DNA of 64,000 nt, taken from the IMG/VR virus record IMGVR_UViG_3300009152_000030, positions 64,001-128,000 of that record. One strand, given 5' to 3'. The stretch is from a virus. Positions within the stretch are counted from its first letter, which is position 1; every line of letters begins with the position of its first letter. The notes under the pieces were generated by a model that worked only from the letters and a program-made list of their open reading frames with translations, was not told where the DNA came from and did no database searches. The position numbers were made by a program, and so were the translations under genes. Of this stretch, positions 2,352 through 14,848 are shown one piece after another.

Positions 2352-5105
2352 ATGTTTTTTAGAGACGGAAAACTTATTCCCTTTGCTGAGTTTGTAGGCA
2401 GTAATGATGCTCTTGATTTCTTTAAAAGTCAAGGTGTAGATACTAGCCAAGGTTATCCTGCGCTTATATCTGCTTGGAAAAATGCTCCTGAGGTTAAAGA
2501 TTTTTTAGGTAAGCGCCAAGATTTTCATTTTAATGAAGAGTTAAGAAAAGAAAGAGATCGACTTACTAAACATTGGTTTGGGGATCCTTCAGAAACTGTA
2601 CGCCCTCTTGCTTCAAATACTGAAGCTTTTTCTCTTGGTGTGGATTATTACAAAGAAGCAGCTTTCCGACAAGATGTCGCATTTAAACAAATTGAGCAGG
2701 TAATTGCTGGGAATCCTATGCTTTCAGAGCATGGGCAACTCATGGACAATTTTACAACGTTTGGTAGAGTCCACGGAGTGCAAGCAGACATCGCATTACC
2801 TAGCCAGAGAGAGCGGCTAGAAAGGGAATATATAGAAAAAGGATCTCCTAGAGACTTAACAATTCATGGTAACCCGAGGGAGCAATTTGTTACTATTCAT
2901 GGTTCATCAGAAGGAGACTTATATGACGCAGGCGGTAAATTACCTCTTGAACGGGTAGATGACCTTAAAAATGCATATGTAGCATGTTGTTATCCTAATC
3001 AAGTTCAAGGTAAATATCCTTTTTTAAAAATCAGATCACCTGAATCTACAGTTCCGAGTTTTGTTGGTAGTAGTAAGCTGGAAGTAATTGATGATCCGGT
3101 CTCAACATTTAATCCATCTATTAGTTCACATACTTCAATTCTTCCAGTTTCAAGTACAAGAGAAAAAGTAACAGAAGCTTCTAGGATGGGTTTTGATTTA
3201 GTAAGTCCTCTGACCGAAATGGAGGATGTTATTCATGGTAGGAGGCCAGCATTATTTTTTGCTGGGACCAAAGAAGAATTTAAAAAATCTTTCCTGCTCA
3301 GTACTACGCCTGATGATAATAGTCCTCTTAAAGCAGCAAAAACTGCCGTTCAAATGAAAGGTTCTGGAGCTTTAGTTGAATTTGAAGAAGAGTTTGAACT
3401 TGGAAATAAAGGATATTTTTTAGGTAAGCCTGAAACTATTGAAAAAATTAAAAGTCTTATTCAAGAAAATCAACATCTTGATCTTGATGCAGTTTTTGGT
3501 GCTCCTTTTGCAGAGCAGTTGTCAAGTCTTGATTTTGATCCAGAAACTGAGGCATTTGACAAAGAGATACGTAGCCTTTTAGGCTATACTCCAGAAAGTA
3601 CTGAACTTCGTTCATTCTTAAGAAGAAATGAGTTAGATGAACATATTTTGCCCATTTATCCTGCTAATCCATATCAAATTGATGTAGCGGGTGATGCAAG
3701 GCTGGAGGAGACTATAGGCTCAGTAAAAACTGCTGTTGTAAATAATTTATCTCCAAAAGAGATGCTGAATAATATAATTGAGAATTCGAAAGAAATAGCA
3801 AAAGCTGTAGATAAAGAAGGAGGACTTCCTCCGGCCCCTGCTGGTCCTACATTTAGGTCAGTTCGAACGAATCATTTAAGGGCACAATTTCTTAGCCCAA
3901 AGGGAAGTGCAGCAAGGTTAGAAGCTAAGTTTGGACGAGAGGTTTTAGAAAAATTAGTTAAAATAGGAAAAGTTGGAGGATTAGCATTAGCCTTAGGTAT
4001 TGGTGTTCCTGCTGTAGCTTCAGCCTCGACCGGTGCAGTGGGTGGTGGCGGTGGATTAGGCTCTACCCTGATAACAGGCGCTGCTATAATAGGAGGGATA
4101 GGAGTAGCAACAGGATTAGGTGTTGCTGCGTATAAGGGAGCGAAAGCAGCCAAAATTCCAAGTGTACTAGGAAATATTATGTCTGGACCAGGTGGTGGCA
4201 CAATTAATAGGAATACTGGTTCAAGAATCTATAACAGTGGATTTATCCAAGGTGAGCTAGATTTAACTACTAGAGGTTTTTTTGCCGGTATTGGGTCAGT
4301 CATTAACGACTTTGGTCTTAACCGCAGAATTAGTGGCTTTGACCAGAGTGGCAAAGCTTCAGGTTTCCTAGACTCATTCTTTGGTAAGGCTCTTGGGTCT
4401 ACCGGATATGTCCACCCTGTATACCGTGCTGAAGAAGCTTTTTGGCAAGTTGCTAATAACTTAGATGATGCCTACCAAGGATGGAAAAATTATATTAGCA
4501 CATCAGCTAGTAGATCTAGTGGTATAGCTAAGTTTTTTCATGGTGCACGTTACTCTGGATTTAAGCTACTTGACTCTGTTGGCGATGGATGGCTGAATAA
4601 GCAACTAGTCAAAATGGGCGGATTATCTACGATGATTGCTCCTGCCCTAATGGGTTATGGCGCAATAGGTGACTTTAAGTCTGGATACCGCACTGGAGGT
4701 GTCTTAGGTGGAATAGGAAATACAGCACTTGGAATAACTACTGGACTAGTCCAAAATAAAGTCATTGCTGGTGCTTTATTAAATCCTGCAATTGGTTTGA
4801 CTGGCGGAGCGGTTGCCGCTGCAGCTGGCTATACTGCTTTCAAGGTTTTTGATGTTAGAAACAAAGGCGCTCAATATATGAGATCAGGTCGAATGGGTGG
4901 TATTTCTTGGAATCGTGGCCCAACTCCTGGTATGTCAAGTTCTATGGGAGCTAGTGTTAGGCAGAGAGCAATAAATGCAATGGAAAATTCAAGGTTTAGT
5001 GCAATGAAGGCTATAGGCAATGAAAGTTATATGATGAGCGCTCCAAAGGCAAGATACTCAAGCTCAACTGCTATATACGGAACGTCTTCAATGCTATCTT
5101 ACTAG
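2352..5105 (+). CDS. Putative virion/ejection membrane protein, paralogue B
   Basis: 917-aa ORF with TIHG...VACCYP, hydrophobic Gly-rich helices and a C-terminal RQRAINAMENSRFSAMKAIGNE motif shared with paralogue A. Lies directly upstream of terL. Confidence 0.55.
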   Translation: MFFRDGKLIPFAEFVGSNDALDFFKSQGVDTSQGYPALISAWKNAPEVKDFLGKRQDFHFNEELRKERDRLTKHWFGDPSETVRPLASNTEAFSLGVDYYKEAAFRQDVAFKQIEQVIAGNPMLSEHGQLMDNFTTFGRVHGVQADIALPSQRERLEREYIEKGSPRDLTIHGNPREQFVTIHGSSEGDLYDAGGKLPLERVDDLKNAYVACCYPNQVQGKYPFLKIRSPESTVPSFVGSSKLEVIDDPVSTFNPSISSHTSILPVSSTREKVTEASRMGFDLVSPLTEMEDVIHGRRPALFFAGTKEEFKKSFLLSTTPDDNSPLKAAKTAVQMKGSGALVEFEEEFELGNKGYFLGKPETIEKIKSLIQENQHLDLDAVFGAPFAEQLSSLDFDPETEAFDKEIRSLLGYTPESTELRSFLRRNELDEHILPIYPANPYQIDVAGDARLEETIGSVKTAVVNNLSPKEMLNNIIENSKEIAKAVDKEGGLPPAPAGPTFRSVRTNHLRAQFLSPKGSAARLEAKFGREVLEKLVKIGKVGGLALALGIGVPAVASASTGAVGGGGGLGSTLITGAAIIGGIGVATGLGVAAYKGAKAAKIPSVLGNIMSGPGGGTINRNTGSRIYNSGFIQGELDLTTRGFFAGIGSVINDFGLNRRISGFDQSGKASGFLDSFFGKALGSTGYVHPVYRAEEAFWQVANNLDDAYQGWKNYISTSASRSSGIAKFFHGARYSGFKLLDSVGDGWLNKQLVKMGGLSTMIAPALMGYGAIGDFKSGYRTGGVLGGIGNTALGITTGLVQNKVIAGALLNPAIGLTGGAVAAAAGYTAFKVFDVRNKGAQYMRSGRMGGISWNRGPTPGMSSSMGASVRQRAINAMENSRFSAMKAIGNESYMMSAPKARYSSSTAIYGTSSMLSY

Positions 5106-7707: not shown

Positions 7708-9966
7708 ATGGAAAGACTCCCTTTACAGAAAAGACAAATCTTTTCGATAACAAATACGCAACAAGACATTACACTAGAAGAAGTTGGTTCTAGCGACAAT
7801 AAAGATGTAAACAAACTATCTAAAAATGAACTGGATGGTCTTATTAAAGATCTTCTTTCTGCAATAGAACCCAACAAAGAATATAATCAAATCTTAGATA
7901 GTAACCTTTACAATGGTAAGGCAAAGAATCTTGACTTTCTTGGAGTAGAAGCTTTGCGCAAGGAAAATAGAGAAGAAGCAAAACGACAAGCAGCTATTCT
8001 AGACAATTTTTTGAGAGTTACAGCAGAAAGATTAGAAGATATAAACTATAGTGTTGAGTATGCAAAAGAAGACCATGACCAATGTCTAGTTGCTAACTTT
8101 TTATTTCCTAATCATCAAAAAGGAAAATTAACTTATCAGGAAATCAAACAACTTAAACAATATACAAAGCTATATAGAGAACTTAAAGCTGATAATCAAT
8201 TAAGGTCTGCTACAAAAGATATAAAAAATGATCCAATGGTTGGAATGGATGAAGATGAAGATCTTAATTCAAAGTATGGTCAAGTAATTAAATTGGCTTA
8301 CGCTTACCAGACAGAAAAGACTGCTAAAAAAGATTATGATCCTGAGCCTAAAAAGACATTGGGAAAGATGGCGTCTGATTGGCTTAATGAGCTAGAAGAA
8401 GATAAGAGATTCAAAGTTTACGAAGAATTTGATATTTTTAGAGATATGTTTGGACTTGAAACAACTTTAGCTCAAAATGAAACAAAACTGAGTGAAGACA
8501 ATATTAGTGCAAAAGTTGGGTTGATACCTTTGTTTAATGAGGCCGAGAAGACTAGGGAAGTTGTTCATGGCATAGAGAGTACCCTTAATGGAATAGACAA
8601 GCAAAATAGTGCTATTGACGTCTTGATGAGAGGCAAAGAACCTTCAAATGTAAAGGCAAGAGCAATAGGAGAACCTGCTAAGAGTCTTGGAGATCTAGTA
8701 ACGAACTGGGAAGGTTGCTATGAGTGCTTTGGTGGGGAGTGGGCTAAGTTAGCAGACAAGTTAGGAGATATTAAAGGCCCAGGAGATATATTTAAAGGCA
8801 GTGACTTTGTATTTGGTGTTGATCTTGAAGTAAAACTTAAAGAGCAGTTAGCAATTACAAAAGCTCTTCTTGACAAAATAAGATTTGCTAGTGACATTGA
8901 GTTTCAGTTAAAAGCTAACTATTGCTCTCTTCTACGACTTGGCTCTTTGTGTCCTCTTGAATTATTGTTTGTTATTGCAAGCTTAGGTGGACTTCTAGTT
9001 TATACTTGGTCTGAGATATTCTCTGCAAATGCAAACTTTGGATTAAATTTTCTAAGAGATCTCATTTTACGTGGAGTTGTTGAGCCCCTTTTAAATCTTT
9101 TGCAAATGAGTATTCGTGCAAATATTAGTCCTTTGCCTAACTATGCTTTATGTACTATTAACAGTCTTATTAGTGTTCAAGACATTGATAAGGCTGGAAA
9201 GCAGTATGGATTTACAACTGAAGAACTTTCTAATTGGGTGAATTCAGGGACAGCAGAAGATGAAAGCAAAATAAGTGCGCTTACAAAATTTAGTGAAACA
9301 TACTTCAATAATAGCAATGGTCAAGTTGGCGTAGACCAGCAAGCCGTAGGAACAGCCTTAGAAGGGGCATTAAATAATAATGGTATGAAGTTTTTATCAA
9401 CAATAACAAATCCCCTTTTTGGTAAAGGCGATGCTCTTGACTCAATTGAAATGATCAAGTCTGTCATATACGACTTTATTGATTGGGTTTCTTCTCAGTC
9501 AGACATTGTAAAGTATGGCCTTGATGCCTTGAAGGCTTTGATGGGTACTCAAGCTGATACCAATATTGTTCTCTGTACAAAGATTATGGCTTTGTCTCAG
9601 ACTCTAGCCTTTGCTCTAGGAGTTTACAAAGCAGCAACCTCTAAGGGAATTGAACCTTGCATTCCTATGAAAGATGATAATGGTAACCTAACAAATGAAA
9701 GCCCATGGGATCCCTGGGATCCGGATCCTAATAGTGACTTTCCAATGAAGGAGTACTTCAATAGCCAACCTGTTTACCAGGAAAAGGCAAGGAATAACAA
9801 GAGTAACAAAAAGACAAAGCCGATTAGATATCTAATAAATCCTGCAACTGATAGTAGATTTAATCTTACCAATTGCGATAGAGCAAAATCGTCTATAATA
9901 AGCAAAGGTGAAAGTCTGGATTTCTGGAGACGAGTTGCATTAGGAGCAAACGTAGACAATGTTTAA
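7708..9966 (+). CDS. Hypothetical head-module protein: coiled N-half, Cys-containing hydrophobic C-half
   Basis: 752-aa ORF overlapping the portal start. Contains CYEC and CSLLRLGSLCP, plus the hydrophobic helix LLFVIASLGGLLVYTW. Confidence 0.5.
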   Translation: MERLPLQKRQIFSITNTQQDITLEEVGSSDNKDVNKLSKNELDGLIKDLLSAIEPNKEYNQILDSNLYNGKAKNLDFLGVEALRKENREEAKRQAAILDNFLRVTAERLEDINYSVEYAKEDHDQCLVANFLFPNHQKGKLTYQEIKQLKQYTKLYRELKADNQLRSATKDIKNDPMVGMDEDEDLNSKYGQVIKLAYAYQTEKTAKKDYDPEPKKTLGKMASDWLNELEEDKRFKVYEEFDIFRDMFGLETTLAQNETKLSEDNISAKVGLIPLFNEAEKTREVVHGIESTLNGIDKQNSAIDVLMRGKEPSNVKARAIGEPAKSLGDLVTNWEGCYECFGGEWAKLADKLGDIKGPGDIFKGSDFVFGVDLEVKLKEQLAITKALLDKIRFASDIEFQLKANYCSLLRLGSLCPLELLFVIASLGGLLVYTWSEIFSANANFGLNFLRDLILRGVVEPLLNLLQMSIRANISPLPNYALCTINSLISVQDIDKAGKQYGFTTEELSNWVNSGTAEDESKISALTKFSETYFNNSNGQVGVDQQAVGTALEGALNNNGMKFLSTITNPLFGKGDALDSIEMIKSVIYDFIDWVSSQSDIVKYGLDALKALMGTQADTNIVLCTKIMALSQTLAFALGVYKAATSKGIEPCIPMKDDNGNLTNESPWDPWDPDPNSDFPMKEYFNSQPVYQEKARNNKSNKKTKPIRYLINPATDSRFNLTNCDRAKSSIISKGESLDFWRRVALGANVDNV

Positions 9967-11488
9967 ATTAAAAGCACAAGTTATTAATCTAAAAAATCTT
10001 GCATCTTCTATTCAAATAATAGATGATGCGGAGAGTAAGATACCTGCGCCAAGTTTAGAAAAAACAAAAGATCCAGTATTTAACTATAGAACAACTCGTC
10101 CATACTTTATGAACGATTGGCAGAAATTAGAACATGATTTTAAGGAGATAGATAAAGTTGCTACCATTGAAGCTTATTTACAAATAAGCTTTGACAAGAA
10201 ACTATCTTTATTTATGAAAGAAGGTTATGAGGTTGTAGGTAAAGATCGAGATCTTGTAGAATACGTAGAGCGCCGCTTGAAGGAAGTTTGTTATGTTAGC
10301 CGGACTACACCTCGCCAGTTTATAACTGATATAGCCAAAAATATTATTAGATATAGTAATTGTTTTGTTCTTGTTAAACGAGATGATAAGACATCTGGCG
10401 GCTATACTAGAACAGACTCTAAAGGCCGCAAAATAGCCCCAATTAGCTCACTTCATGTACTTCCCACCAGTATGATCCAGGTTAAGGTGAACGACCTTAA
10501 GCAGCCCATAAAGTATCGACAATACAGTGAAGAAGACTGGACTGAGAATACTCGTCCTACTGCTATATATGAGCCTAATGAAATTATTCATTTCCATGTT
10601 AATAAGCTTGAAGGCTTTATTGTTGGTACTCCAAGATGCAGCGCAGCAATTGAAGATATTAAAGCTTTGCGTCGCATTGAAACAGATGTAGAAGTTTTAC
10701 TTCATCAAAGTATCTTTCCAATTGTCCAGTACAAGATTGGTACTGATGCCATGCCTGCTACTATTCTTCCAGATGGAAGAGATGAGATTAGTATGGTTAC
10801 TGAGGTTATTAATAATCAGCCACCTGAAGGTTTCTTTGTTACTCCTGAGCGTCATGAAATTAAAATGATTGGCGCAGAGGGTCGTTCGCTTAGAGCCGAA
10901 GGTTATCTTGACTATTTCAAGAAGCGTGTTCTTGCTGCGCTTGGTTTGTCTACGGTTGACATTGGTGAAGGCGATACTGCAAATAGATCAACTGCTGCGA
11001 CTATGTCTAGTAGTCTTATTAATGCAGTAAAGAGTGACCAGCTGGTTTTCGAAGAACAAATCTATGCTCATTTGATTGTTCCTCTTTTACAAGAAAGTGC
11101 TAAAGATAATAGCTTTGACTGGCTAGATCCAGACAATAAAGTTGTTTTAAGATTTAAAGAGATAGATGTTGAAAACCAAATAAAGAAAGAGAATGCTGCA
11201 ATTCAGCTTTGGTTGAACAGCGCCATCAGCCATGATGAGCTTAGAGATCGGATTGGTCTTTCTGCTGCTCAGGAAGATGACTGGGATCATTCTTATTACA
11301 AGATGGTTACAGAAGCCCAAGAGCTCTTGAAACTTGGAGCTAACGTAATGTCACCTATTGCAGAAACCTCTGCTAGAAGTGACAAAACACCTATGTCCTC
11401 GTCTGATTTAAATAAGGCAAGAGAACTACAAGCCAAGTCGGCTGCTAAATCTTCTGGGAAACCTGCTGTTAAAAAAAAAATTCGATAG
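9959..11488 (+). CDS. Portal protein
   Basis: Located between terL and the protease. Portal-like segments: SNCFVLVKR, LHVLPTSMI, EIIHFH...GTP, KRVLAALGL, AISHDELRDRIG. Ends just after an A10 run. Confidence 0.9.
   Translation: MFKLKAQVINLKNLASSIQIIDDAESKIPAPSLEKTKDPVFNYRTTRPYFMNDWQKLEHDFKEIDKVATIEAYLQISFDKKLSLFMKEGYEVVGKDRDLVEYVERRLKEVCYVSRTTPRQFITDIAKNIIRYSNCFVLVKRDDKTSGGYTRTDSKGRKIAPISSLHVLPTSMIQVKVNDLKQPIKYRQYSEEDWTENTRPTAIYEPNEIIHFHVNKLEGFIVGTPRCSAAIEDIKALRRIETDVEVLLHQSIFPIVQYKIGTDAMPATILPDGRDEISMVTEVINNQPPEGFFVTPERHEIKMIGAEGRSLRAEGYLDYFKKRVLAALGLSTVDIGEGDTANRSTAATMSSSLINAVKSDQLVFEEQIYAHLIVPLLQESAKDNSFDWLDPDNKVVLRFKEIDVENQIKKENAAIQLWLNSAISHDELRDRIGLSAAQEDDWDHSYYKMVTEAQELLKLGANVMSPIAETSARSDKTPMSSSDLNKARELQAKSAAKSSGKPAVKKKIR
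11471..11480 (+). other. Candidate -1 slippage site (A10) linking the portal to the downstream frame
   Basis: The -1 frame is closed by TAA at 11470-11472 and then open from 11473 to 12123. The portal stop is at 11486-11488. Confidence 0.6.
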
Positions 11489-12123
11489 CGTCTCCTAGCG
11501 GTAAAACTAATGCGAATGCCGTCAGACCATCAAATCAGCATGGTACTAAAAGCGGCCCAGGAAGTTTAGTTACGAATAGTATTCTGGACTTTGATGAGTA
11601 TCGAGAGGATGTGAATGGATTAGTTAGTCATCTTAAAGAAAAAGCTGACTACGACGTTCATCCTGAATTTACCATTGATGCCGCTTTTGAGCGTTTTTCT
11701 GTTATGCTTAAAGATAACAGTATTAAGGCATACATAAAGGGCTATTCTGAATATGCGGATTCTTCTAATTTAACTTCTGAGACTCACACCGGAAACATAG
11801 AGTTCCAGTTGAAGGTCCAGAAGTTTTTTATAGATAAGTTGCATATTGAAATGCGCAATCGCCAAGGCAATACTATAACTGACACAGCAAAGACTATAGG
11901 TCATAGAATGATGACTATCTATGAGACAGAAAGAATGAGAAGTTATAACTGGGGTGTTTTCAATGCGTTGAAGGATAGTGGCGAAGAATCATACCAGGTA
12001 TATAATCAAAGTAGTCAGTCTATAATAGATAATAGAAAAATCTCAGATAGTAAGTATTATGATTTACCGCCTGATCATCCTAATAGCAAAGTCATTATAA
12101 GGAAGGCTAATGAAGATAAGTAA
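11473..12123 (+). CDS. Mu gpF/SPP1 gp7-like head morphogenesis domain, probably a frameshift extension of the portal (alternative GTG start at 11611)
   Basis: TERMRSYNWG and LPPDHPNSK resemble the TE..A.N.G and PPxHPNCRC motifs of the gpF family, but without the cysteines. There are 46 open codons upstream of the GTG. Confidence 0.6.
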   Translation, partial: KKNSIASPSGKTNANAVRPSNQHGTKSGPGSLVTNSILDFDEYREDVNGLVSHLKEKADYDVHPEFTIDAAFERFSVMLKDNSIKAYIKGYSEYADSSNLTSETHTGNIEFQLKVQKFFIDKLHIEMRNRQGNTITDTAKTIGHRMMTIYETERMRSYNWGVFNALKDSGEESYQVYNQSSQSIIDNRKISDSKYYDLPPDHPNSKVIIRKANEDK

Positions 12124-14848
12124 GAGACTATTACAAGAAGGTATTGTTCAGGACTATTTTGTTAATAGTGTTAAGGGTGATTTTACTCATGAAGTCTGGG
12201 ACAAGAAAAGCCCACACTTTCTTGATTTTAAATACTTTATTAGTGATGGCGTAGCAGAGAACAAGGTTGGTCTAGTAACTCTTACAAAGGTTACTCATGG
12301 GATGAGGCCCACTCAAAATAATCTTATCTATATGCCGTCTGATCTTAAAGACGCAATCCCTACACTTACTAACCCATACAACATTCCTATTAAGCCTATG
12401 CATAAGGAAGTTGCAGTTGTTGATGGTAAGAAAATTGAAAATAGAGAGGTAGGTGCAGTTGGCCGTGCAATTGGTGGAACTTGGGTAGACAACCCTAAGG
12501 CTGCTTATAATGTTAGCTCTACAATGATCAAGGATGGCCTTATGCTTAAGGCTCCTGACGTTGCTATGGCTCCCTATATGAAGAAGTTTGCTAAGTCTGG
12601 AATGATGACTGATGAGGATTTTGAAGGCCTTGGATGGGTACTCGTCAAGGGACTTGTTACGGATCCAGAGGCTGTAGAGAAAACTCTTGATGGGCGCTAT
12701 CTTACAGTTAGCGTTGAAATGACTCCTAATGATCTTTATGATTCTATTAGCGGCAGATCATACAAGACTGACGAAATGGAATGGGATATTGGTGATGACA
12801 TTGATGGCGTTAAAGCTTATGGTGTACCAAGTGGTCTTCGTTACCGTGGCTATGCTTACGTTACACATCCTGCCGACGTTCATGCCAGAGTAATGAATTA
12901 TAAAGAGGTTGGAGGCGATGCTCTTCAGCAATATCTAGATAACTTCAAGACTACTATGGTAATGACTGATTGTTTCAAGAATGCTGTTACTGATATTAGT
13001 GACTCAGAGATTATGGCAAGCTTTGACAATGGTCCAGTTGCAACAATACCAGTTGAAATTGTAGAAGATCATGCTGATCTTTATACTCAACTTTCAGAAG
13101 AAGAAAAAGCTTTGGCTGATTCTTTGATGACTCTTGCTAGTAAAGTCGGACCTCTTGATAAAGCTCCTGGTATTTGGGTTGGCTATGAAAGTGGCCCAGA
13201 GAATGAAAATCTTAGCATTGGTGTTAAGTGCGGAAACTGTGCGCTTCATGCCAGCGAGAATCGTTGTAAAATTATTTCCCAAACCATAGAGCCAAATGGC
13301 TACTGCAGATTTGCTGTTATTCCAGACGGACTTGTAACAGCAAACAAGATAGAACCTATGGAAGACCAAGCCAACCTAACTAATCAAGAGGAGCAAGAAA
13401 TGCCCAGCGTACTATCAGAAGACAATAAGAAGGAAATCCTTTCAATTGTTGACGAATACATTAAGTTAAAGTCTGTTGTTCCTGTAGAAGTAATTTCAGA
13501 ACTTGAAGAGCTACGCTCTGGTAAAGCTATTGCAGATGAAAAGCTTGCTAAAGTTGAACTTGATACTAAGTCACTACTAGACTCTGTTAAAGAGTTTCTT
13601 GCTAGTAACTTCAATGTAGAACTAGCCGATGATATGTCAGCTGAGATGTTTTCTGAGATGGTCAAAACAATCACTATTGATGATGCCGTCTGGACAACTG
13701 CTTACGTTAACAATCTTCCAGATAGTTCATTCTTCTATATCACTCCAGGTGGCGAGAAAGATGAAGAGGGCAAGACTAAGCCTCGTTCACTTCGCCATCT
13801 TCCATACAAGGGAGACGATGGTAAGGTTGATCTTCCTCATCTTCGTAATGCAATTGCTAGAGCACCTCAGGTTAGTGGTCTTGCACCTGAGAAGGTTAAG
13901 TCAATCCAGTCTCGTGCCCAGAAGATGCTTGCACGTATGCAAGATGCTGGCAAGTCCAAGATGGATGAGAGTGAATTTGGTGAAGATATTCAAGATTTAT
14001 TTGGTCCAGAAATGGATGATGAGGCTCAGGGTTTTGTGCCTACACCTGGTATGGCGTCAGCTGCAAAACGTGCTCTTGAGTGGCGTGCAGAGTTTAAGCG
14101 CGGTGGTACTGGCGTAGGCGTAGCGCGTGCACGAGATATTATCAATAAGAAAGAGCTTTCTCCTTCTACTGTTATGCGTATGAAGAGTTTCTTTGCACGT
14201 CATGAAGTTGACAAGAAAGCTTCTGGCTTCAATCAAGGCGAAGAAGGTTTTCCTTCTCCTGGTCGTATTGCTTGGGATCTTTGGGGAGGCGATGGTGGCA
14301 AGAGCTGGGCAAATGCTAAAGCTGCTCAAGTTGAACGTATGAGAGCTGAAGATTCCGTAAAGGGTCCTTGGGTTATGGGCGACTTTGTTTACAATGAGCC
14401 CGCTACTGAGTCTACAATTGAAACTGCAGTTGAAGATGCGTATACTCCAGAAAAGACTTATACAACTCCATCTACTCCCACATTTGCAGTTGGTGATTTT
14501 GTTGCCTATCGTCTTGATAGCAAGGGTAATGAAGTTGGTATTAGTTCAGGTTCACTTGGTGAACAGGATGACGCAGTTGAAATGAAAGAAGGATATGGAG
14601 TGATTGATGCTATGCATAGCAAAGGAACTGTTACTCATGGTCCTGGTCTAAGTGTAGATGCATCAGAGGAAGATCCTGCTACTATTCTTACTATTGCTAA
14701 GATGGGTGAAGATGGCTTGTATGACAAGACTGAGGAAGTAACTGTCAAGAAGAGGTCTGAGCTAAGAAAGATTATGGCTCCTATTGTGTGGAGTAAGAAA
14801 GAGACTCCTCCGCTTGGCGCTTATCCTGCTCCTGGTATAGGTGGCTAA
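12110..14848 (+). CDS. Prohead (capsid maturation) protease with several appended domains
   Basis: N-terminal protease-like region (PMH, AVGR, LDGRYLTVSV, YVTHPAD), located after the portal. Followed by a CxxC..C..C domain, a coiled coil and three more compact domains. Confidence 0.8.
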   Translation: MKISKRLLQEGIVQDYFVNSVKGDFTHEVWDKKSPHFLDFKYFISDGVAENKVGLVTLTKVTHGMRPTQNNLIYMPSDLKDAIPTLTNPYNIPIKPMHKEVAVVDGKKIENREVGAVGRAIGGTWVDNPKAAYNVSSTMIKDGLMLKAPDVAMAPYMKKFAKSGMMTDEDFEGLGWVLVKGLVTDPEAVEKTLDGRYLTVSVEMTPNDLYDSISGRSYKTDEMEWDIGDDIDGVKAYGVPSGLRYRGYAYVTHPADVHARVMNYKEVGGDALQQYLDNFKTTMVMTDCFKNAVTDISDSEIMASFDNGPVATIPVEIVEDHADLYTQLSEEEKALADSLMTLASKVGPLDKAPGIWVGYESGPENENLSIGVKCGNCALHASENRCKIISQTIEPNGYCRFAVIPDGLVTANKIEPMEDQANLTNQEEQEMPSVLSEDNKKEILSIVDEYIKLKSVVPVEVISELEELRSGKAIADEKLAKVELDTKSLLDSVKEFLASNFNVELADDMSAEMFSEMVKTITIDDAVWTTAYVNNLPDSSFFYITPGGEKDEEGKTKPRSLRHLPYKGDDGKVDLPHLRNAIARAPQVSGLAPEKVKSIQSRAQKMLARMQDAGKSKMDESEFGEDIQDLFGPEMDDEAQGFVPTPGMASAAKRALEWRAEFKRGGTGVGVARARDIINKKELSPSTVMRMKSFFARHEVDKKASGFNQGEEGFPSPGRIAWDLWGGDGGKSWANAKAAQVERMRAEDSVKGPWVMGDFVYNEPATESTIETAVEDAYTPEKTYTTPSTPTFAVGDFVAYRLDSKGNEVGISSGSLGEQDDAVEMKEGYGVIDAMHSKGTVTHGPGLSVDASEEDPATILTIAKMGEDGLYDKTEEVTVKKRSELRKIMAPIVWSKKETPPLGAYPAPGIGG

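Follow-up and report, generated by a model that had tools for sequence, protein, structure and literature searches.

The stretch of DNA analysed here, referred to as the window, comprises 64,000 nucleotides (nt; positions 64,001 to 128,000) of the IMG/VR virus record IMGVR_UViG_3300009152_000030, a 174,117-bp record that CheckV rates as complete and that has a GC content of 39.7%. On its forward strand lies a portal gene that ends on a run of ten adenines (A10), and from this run a second frame, offset by −1, continues into a C-terminal extension composed of a linker motif and a domain of the SPP1 gp7/Mu gpF type (MuF-like; hereafter the C-domain). The conservation of this arrangement suggests that the portal gene is recoded at the run. 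The features concerned are the following.

9959..11488, + strand: portal gene, zero frame; short product of 509 amino acids (aa) ending ...PAVKKKIR, from the open reading frame (ORF) and its translation.
11470..11472, + strand: TAA closing the −1 frame directly before the run, from the sequence.
11471..11480, + strand: A10 run, the proposed recoding site, read AAA AAA AAA A in the portal frame.
11486..11488, + strand: TAG stop of the short portal, two codons past the run, from sequence and translation.
11479..12123, + strand: −1 frame extension, from NSIASPSGK... to the stop, 214 aa, from the translation, relatives and a codon-position signature.
11524..11550, + strand: linker motif RPSNQHGTK (P-x-N-Q-H-G-T-K) in the −1 frame, from alignment A2 (see below).
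11578..12120, + strand: predicted MuF-like domain (SPP1 gp7/Mu gpF type), a helical bundle and a small sheet, ending PPDHPNS, from AlphaFold2 (AF2) modelling, BFVD matches and homologues.
11611..11613, + strand: GTG proposed as an independent start, with GAGG upstream; rejected as a conserved start.

The 3′ end of the portal gene reads GTT AAA AAA AAA ATT CGA TAG, with A10 lying between GTT and TTCGATAG. The −1 frame is open from 11473 to 12123 (216 codons), and its translation begins KKNSIASPSGKTNANAVRPSNQHGTKSGPGS... An initial annotation, made from the sequence alone, had described this portal ending, a −1 frame that opens after the TAA at 11470–11472 and runs into the downstream ORF, an overlap of the two open frames limited to 11473–11485, and a fusion product of about 721 aa. 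Sequence and translation agree with all of this: the overlap is confined to 13 nt, and the fusion product computes to 507 + 214 = 721 aa, with KKKNSIASPSGK as the junction peptide expected of the long product. The portal ORF itself matches the portal family phrog_9232 over residues 55–499 (E = 2.5e-36), and its match to Pfam Phage_portal (PF04860) scores 27.7 bits, which is under the cut-off of 39.1 bits. Portal and MuF-like domain do not form one uninterrupted ORF in the window, where the break falls at 11471–11488, or in the clade of relatives that share this split layout.

Searches of IMG/VR with the portal and the downstream product returned related contigs, about 18 in number, of which 17 extend across the junction, with identities of 75–96% over the portal and 64–98% over the extension. 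In all 17, a T is followed by exactly A10, the portal codon phase begins at the first A, and the −1 frame, which has a TAA overlapping the run, is then open for 638–650 nt. A HMMER search of 1.84 billion representatives gave only 14 matches. Three of these, at 42%, 34% and 30% identity, had the appearance of stand-alone proteins and led to contigs L052, L053 and L054, in which a 507–519-aa portal is followed by a run at the junction and by the C-domain in the −1 frame. The junction of L052 (CTT AAA AAA AAA GTA) holds A9, and that of L053 and L054 (ACT CAA AAA AAA AAG TAG/TAA) holds A10 in the other codon register. Two further contigs, L057, the sole new contig from a scan of metagenome contigs, and L058 (JBBARF010000182.1; run at 4278–4287; portal 82% identical), show T followed by A10 and the same layout. 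A blastn search of the region against GenBank phages gave no match. The 23 junction-spanning split contigs (the 17 from IMG/VR with L052–L054, L057 and L058; several are duplicates) come from independent projects and assemblers (IMG/VR, ENA, Logan and a GTDB metagenome-assembled genome (MAG)), and their portals are 51–96% identical to that of the window. All 23 carry A10 (A9 in L052) with the C-domain at the −1 offset, and an in-frame junction was found in none of them.

The surroundings of the run vary more than the run itself. The zero-frame stop lies 15 nt past the run start in the main clade and 48 nt past it in the L012 clade; in L053 and L054 it follows the run immediately. A −1-frame stop sits at position −1 to the run start in every relative whose run begins in the register of the window (register 0), but not in L053 and L054. 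In all register-0 lineages a T precedes the run, whichever codon it belongs to (GTT, ATT, ACT, TCT or CTT), and this T gives rise to a −1-frame TAA precisely at the run; L053 and L054 have C at this position. The constant T may reflect lineage inheritance or an effect of the flank on slippage.

These counts bear on two explanations that operate at the level of the DNA. The initial annotation had named a homopolymer assembly error as the main alternative, that is, a true A11 and a single 721-aa ORF with one base under-called. Homopolymers are the classic site of such errors, and relatives with a single fused ORF exist (see below). However, an artefact would have to repeat one and the same under-call across 23 contigs, which stem from several projects and assemblers and include the A9 run and the second register, and no in-frame version was seen; an invariant 11-nt homopolymer within a hypervariable linker would still need explaining, and the fused relatives are without any run. 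We rejected this explanation, which we regard as extremely improbable, since run and offset are found in 23 of 23 contigs. The second explanation is phase variation, in which replication slippage would toggle A10 and A11 and thereby switch the extension on or off genome by genome. A10 runs are unstable in replication, and such contingency loci are common in bacteria. A freely toggling locus should nevertheless appear in both states; all 23 consensus sequences are out of frame and none is in frame, although a consensus does not show minor subpopulations, and phase variation is very improbable.

To see whether the run exceeds what its codons require, lysine codons served as a control. The 60 nt before the run encode an Ala/Lys/Ser/Pro-rich linker that is hypervariable and hardly alignable between sub-clades, and the run is present throughout. 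In codon alignments of the portal and the C-domain, 18 columns have Lys in all 13 distinct sequences. Fourteen of them mix AAA and AAG, including the third codon of the run (AAG in L053 and L054 only), and four are all AAA, three of these four being inside the run. Outside the run, 13 of 14 Lys-invariant columns are mixed, and overall AAA usage is 54%. The comparison indicates that selection acts on the nucleotides of the run, beyond coding need.

The sequence just after the run evolves as a −1-frame coding sequence. Over the 90 nt at 11482–11571, which encode ...NANAVRPSNQHGTKSGPGSLV..., variation among 15 relatives affects 28 of the 30 third positions in the −1 frame, compared with 16 of 30 first and 9 of 30 second positions, and the mean pairwise differences are 0.47, 0.15 and 0.12 for third, first and second positions, respectively. 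The extension is matched over residues 1–216 in relatives, at 64–98% identity. The initial annotation had proposed looking for the same run and frame break in relatives and for coding conservation of 11473–11610; run and break are present in 23 of 23 split contigs, and the coding conservation is present as well.

The most conserved part of the extension is the linker motif. In alignment A2, which holds 24 C-terminal regions, P19, N21 and Q22 are invariant and G24 and T25 nearly so, and the motif core is the only invariant element. The pattern P-x-N-Q-[HYF]-G-T-K occurs in the disordered linker of every split or fused relative and is lacking from the 509-aa portal; in both AF2 models described below the motif is disordered. 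Possible roles are those of a binding peptide and of a processing site. A role as a recurring prohead-protease site was considered and rejected, the motif occurring only once in the genome.

The position of the motif also bears on the possibility that portal and C-domain are simply two separate genes, the C-domain being translated from an internal start such as the GTG at 11611 and the run being an incidental Lys-rich portal tail. Gene callers do give stand-alone ORFs of 128–197 aa, the GTG is preceded by GAGG, and most phages encode their MuF protein as a separate gene (PMC6316719, PMC7911831). Yet no ATG, GTG or TTG precedes the motif in the −1 frame, so that the motif can be reached only by entering the frame from the portal, and RPSNQHGTK lies upstream of every candidate start in a region that evolves as −1-frame coding sequence. 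The first candidate starts fall at residues 36–78, differ between lineages and have no conserved Shine–Dalgarno (SD) sequence; in L005 the first of them is residue 78, within a helix. The GTG at 11611, which the initial annotation had put forward as a site of independent initiation, did not hold up: it stands only 2 nt from its GAGG, is absent in L005, L009 and L052–L054, is a different codon in the L012 clade, and has the conserved motif upstream of it. A search for promoter or terminator signals between the two ORFs found nothing above shuffles, and separate genes would leave the invariant run unexplained. We consider separate genes very improbable; the codon signature and the placement of the motif indicate that the extension is translated from the run onward.

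Distant relatives carry the portal core, the linker motif and the C-domain in one ORF of 680–740 aa (ten distinct forms). They include L021–L024, L043–L048, L050, P0009/10/12/13/18, gp113 of the jumbo Bacillus phage vB_BceM_WH1 (annotated as portal) and its counterpart in Edson, likewise a jumbo phage of Bacillus, and together with the Microbacterium phages (PMC7302621) they bear out the statement of the initial annotation that portal–MuF fusions exist. None of the ten distinct forms has a homopolymer run of at least 6–7 nt at the junction, and the nearest fused sister examined has no A-run of at least 6 nt anywhere in its coding sequence. In a maximum-likelihood tree of the portal core, the 13 split portals form one clade (100/100) that is nested within the fused forms. 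Most simply, this nesting reflects a single event that broke the frame of a fused ancestor and a long retention of the split thereafter. Another layout is seen in L049, which is on a long branch: its 565-aa portal ends right after the motif, and no MuF domain follows.

The initial annotation had called the downstream product gpF-like, and this description is supported indirectly. The C-domain of the window (P0002) itself has no Pfam or PHROG match (E limits 0.1 and 0.01, respectively). An AF2 model built on the 24-sequence alignment has a mean predicted local distance difference test (pLDDT) score of 81, with values of 82–96 over residues 41–210, and consists of a helical bundle and a small sheet that follow disordered residues 1–35. 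A Foldseek search of this model against the PDB gave nothing meaningful (best E = 0.28). The top-ranked BFVD entry has 682 aa, which is as large as the Bacillus jumbo-phage portal, and the top 50 are mostly annotated as 'Minor capsid protein', 'Phage head morphogenesis domain' or portal fusions, with probabilities of about 1 and E values of 5.6e-7 to 5e-2. Four members of alignment A2 match phrog_4728 (head morphogenesis; E to 1.3e-10), others match minor-head-protein PHROGs (7e-9 to 5e-6), and fused homologues match Phage_Mu_F (PF04233) down to E = 2.2e-5 (25.6 bits, under the cut-off of 29.6). The homologues that match these MuF-type families align over the whole C-domain. An AF2 model of a full-length fused homologue comprises portal-core elements, a crown helix, a disordered linker of about 45 residues that holds the motif, and a MuF-like domain; helix-and-sheet elements are confident over the portal part.

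Two sequence signatures within the C-domain behave differently. The C-terminal PPxHPN (PP-D-HPN) is kept in the window and the split clade. Four cysteines in a CxxC...CxC arrangement (columns ~255–290 of A2; ~12000–12110 in the window), present in L043, L044, L046 and L050, have given way to other residues both in the split clade and in the fused sisters nearest to it. Loss of the cysteines with PPxHPN kept suggests a metal-free variant of the domain. The same loss could be taken as a sign of decay, in which the frameshift inactivated the MuF half and left a pseudogene. Against decay stand strong purifying selection (64–98% identity over 216 aa, with a clear third-position bias), the absence of stops over 638–650 nt in every lineage, the retention of the break through divergence to 51% portal identity, and the nearest fused sisters, which are without the same cysteines. 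Decay is therefore hardly credible.

Taken together, these observations suggest that the locus very probably undergoes selected (programmed) recoding, with a 509-aa portal and a 721-aa portal–MuF protein as its products. In the sequence of events that we propose, a portal–MuF ancestor with a single ORF would have had its halves put out of frame by −1 in the flexible linker, at a run of 9–10 A. Standard decoding would stop two codons past the run and give the 509-aa portal. Over the same run, RNA polymerase (RNAP) would add one A to some transcripts, so that translation continues in what is the −1 frame of the genome; alternatively, the ribosome would slip back one base on A_AAA_AAA. An extra A and a −1 ribosomal slip lead to the same 721-aa chain, made up of the portal core, a flexible linker with RPSNQHGTK and the MuF-like domain.

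Which of the two machines slips was considered from the properties of the site. A run of at least 8–9 nt, about the length of the RNA:DNA hybrid, is found in the window and the 23 relatives, at the junction of two out-of-frame conserved ORFs whose offset is −1 in all split contigs. Single-base insertions by RNAP rise exponentially with the length of A/T runs up to 9–11 nt (PMC5574713), Escherichia coli RNAP requires a run of 8 A or more to slip, and the RNAP of phage T7 is far more prone to slippage (PMC6260861). The outcomes of such slippage include 25–30% extended Spa13 in one system and a 1:1 ratio for dnaX in Thermus in another (PMC5009743). An RNA hairpin upstream in the nascent transcript is also part of the picture in some insertion sequence (IS) elements, where it stimulates slippage. 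No upstream nascent-RNA hairpin was found in 13 lineages (fold z −1.0 to +0.5), and a search for an Rfam element at the site found none. The downstream RNA folds no better than shuffles (z −0.47), and an alifold of the downstream region gives −1.9 kcal/mol with one covarying pair and no consensus structure. An SD-like sequence conserved upstream of the site was looked for and not seen, which follows from the hypervariability of the upstream region. What is conserved around the site thus appears to be the run alone.

These properties have to be set against a purely ribosomal mechanism, in which a faithful A10 mRNA would be read with a −1 slip on A_AAA_AAA or A_AAA_AAG, with tRNA-Lys in the P and A sites and help from the nearby stop. 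The product would be identical to that of slippage, and −1 programmed ribosomal frameshifting (PRF) is the usual mode of recoding in phage tail-chaperone and capsid genes (PMC5009743, PMC10885494). A ribosomal shift would not, however, explain why 9–10 A are kept, in two registers (AAA AAA AAA A and CAA AAA AAA AAG), where PRF needs only seven, and the site has hypervariable flanks with no conserved downstream hairpin or pseudoknot and no conserved SD-like element. In E. coli, A_AAA_AAA is a weak shifter in the absence of stimulators, which also counts against it. Both the length of the run in two registers and the lack of a downstream structure, an upstream hairpin or an Rfam element favour RNAP slippage. 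As the sole explanation a ribosomal shift therefore seems rather unlikely. Within recoding, mainly transcriptional slippage has somewhat better than an even chance in our estimation and mainly ribosomal −1 frameshifting a distinctly smaller one, the rest going to both together.

Several points weigh against recoding by slippage or limit how far it can be taken. A run of at least ten A is expected about once in a 174-kb genome of 40% GC, and exactly one is seen; the run by itself is explicable by chance, and it is its conservation and position in relatives that go beyond chance. The genome has seven other A/T runs of at least 8 nt (one A9 and six of 8 nt), and no two long frames are joined by any of them. 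Apart from A10, no run but the A9 reaches 9 nt; it is at genome position 55623, 8,378 bases ahead of the first base of the window, within intergenic, AT-rich sequence (...CCGAAAAAAAAATATATATATAAATAG). Further, an X_XXY_YYZ heptamer stands in the zero frame of every lineage, A_AAA_AAA in the window and A_AAA_AAG in L053 and L054, where the stop follows directly; this arrangement is fully compatible with a ribosomal shift. The slippage figures cited are those of E. coli and T7 RNAP, and the polymerase that transcribes the late genes of this phage may be another. The existence of the long form and the ratio of the two forms are deduced from conservation. The identification of the C-domain as a divergent MuF/SPP1-gp7-like domain, which we consider a fair label, comes from transitive and fold evidence. 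The AF2 models are of monomers, and the number of extended subunits that a ring tolerates lies outside their reach.

If recoding takes place as proposed, the entire portal core is common to both chains, and the two should assemble together into one dodecamer. Only part of the twelve subunits would bear the MuF-like domain and the motif, on the crown side. The portal crown faces the capsid interior, and the MuF-like domain should therefore lie inside the head. That both products are made, in what ratio, and that they co-assemble with a sub-stoichiometric outcome is what we infer from the conserved layout. In SPP1, the portal brings the MuF-family protein gp7 into the procapsid interior in few copies, and virions without gp7 are about 25% infectious (PMC6316719); a small number of MuF-bearing subunits would parallel the few gp7 copies. 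We propose, tentatively and at slightly under an even chance, that RNAP slippage on A10 decides, transcript by transcript, how many of the twelve subunits carry the MuF domain and the motif. The slipping polymerase may be one of the phage's own; a search of the genome for the T7-like RNAP family gave no match, but control genomes were also without one. Were the late genes transcribed by a phage polymerase, the ratio would be set by how readily that enzyme slips.

The proposed arrangement shares features with several described systems. Like the −1 frameshift of the lambda tail assembly chaperone gpG/gpGT (Xu, Hendrix & Duda 2004; reviewed in PMC5009743), it would be a conserved recoding event near the 3′ end of a structural gene that gives a short and a C-extended product from ORFs overlapping by a few bases, with a fixed product ratio from one mRNA region; unlike gpG/gpGT, which uses the heptamer G_GGA_AAG in a chaperone gene, it concerns a portal/MuF pair and a 9–10-nt homopolymer and may be transcriptional. 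The likeness to dnaX of Thermus thermophilus (A9), spa13 and mxiE of Shigella and IS elements (PMC5009743) lies in a homopolymer of hybrid length that needs no other signal, in two protein forms per gene and in an out-of-frame genomic state kept by selection. Those are cellular or IS genes, whereas here a phage portal gene is involved, and slippage in dnaX produces the short form, whereas in the portal gene, as in spa13, the long form would result from it.

Among head proteins, T7 10A/10B, Lactobacillus phage A2 and Listeria PSA and A118 (PMC10885494, PMC10299305) also place a minority of C-extended subunits in the same shell. They extend the major capsid protein; in the window the affected protein is the dodecamer of the unique vertex, and the extension is a whole MuF-like domain. 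As with SPP1 gp6/gp7 (PMC6316719), a few copies of a MuF-type protein would reach the capsid interior by way of the portal, although gp6 and gp7 are products of separate genes joined non-covalently, whereas here the link would be covalent and its frequency set by recoding. The portal–MuF fusions of the Microbacterium EA3, EA5, EA8 and EB phages (PMC7302621) have the same domain order, as do Bacillus vB_BceM_WH1 gp113 and Edson, which are true C-domain homologues and have the NQHG linker motif in common with the window but, unlike it, no A-run. The Microbacterium and Bacillus fusions are uninterrupted ORFs, so that all twelve subunits carry the domain. The recoded arrangement is thus an intermediate between separate genes and full fusion.

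Programmed frameshifts are textbook knowledge for phage tail chaperones and are known for a few capsid proteins; for a portal gene we came across no such report. Portals are not mentioned in the recoding review (PMC5009743) or in the PRFect paper (PMC10885494), and a literature search combining portal with frameshift, slippage or realignment found no case, the Sharma 2011 recoding survey being outside its scope. As far as we found, no recoding event in a portal gene would precede this one. The portal forms the unique vertex, the route by which DNA passes in and out. If both forms are made, its ring would be compositionally mixed by design, which bears on the counting of minor head proteins and on portal symmetry breaking; if the proposal holds, the ring would be genetically encoded to be deliberately asymmetric, and would have been kept so while the portal diverged to about 50% identity. 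The natural series of fused forms, A9/A10 splits in two registers and a portal that ends after the motif offers a comparative system for MuF copy number. For annotation, gene callers split the locus into a portal and an orphan 'hypothetical protein' of 130–200 aa that lacks the most conserved motif, and in this phage group the portal and its extension should be joined.

Two of the relatives were binned with cellular genomes. L058 is a 5.6-kb contig binned in a Bacteriovoracaceae MAG, a weak hint of a Bdellovibrionota host. L059 (CAYVGZ010000001.1), whose portal is 28% identical and of the fused L021–L024 type, is a 196.6-kb contig in a Bathyarchaeia MAG bin and is probably a large phage or virus contig within that bin.

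Directly upstream of the portal gene lies a 752-aa ORF (7708–9966, + strand) without a Pfam or PHROG assignment, whose end and the portal start have 8 nt in common; a large homologous ORF precedes the portal in L052. Downstream, a 912-aa ORF (12110–14848, + strand) begins 14 nt ahead of the extension's stop codon; this overlap suggests that the two are translationally coupled. A family match was obtained for its residues 645–743 only (phrog_2859, of unknown function; E = 1.2e-29), and the ORF probably represents a protease/scaffold region. The order portal, C-domain and large protein is also seen in L053, L054 and L060.

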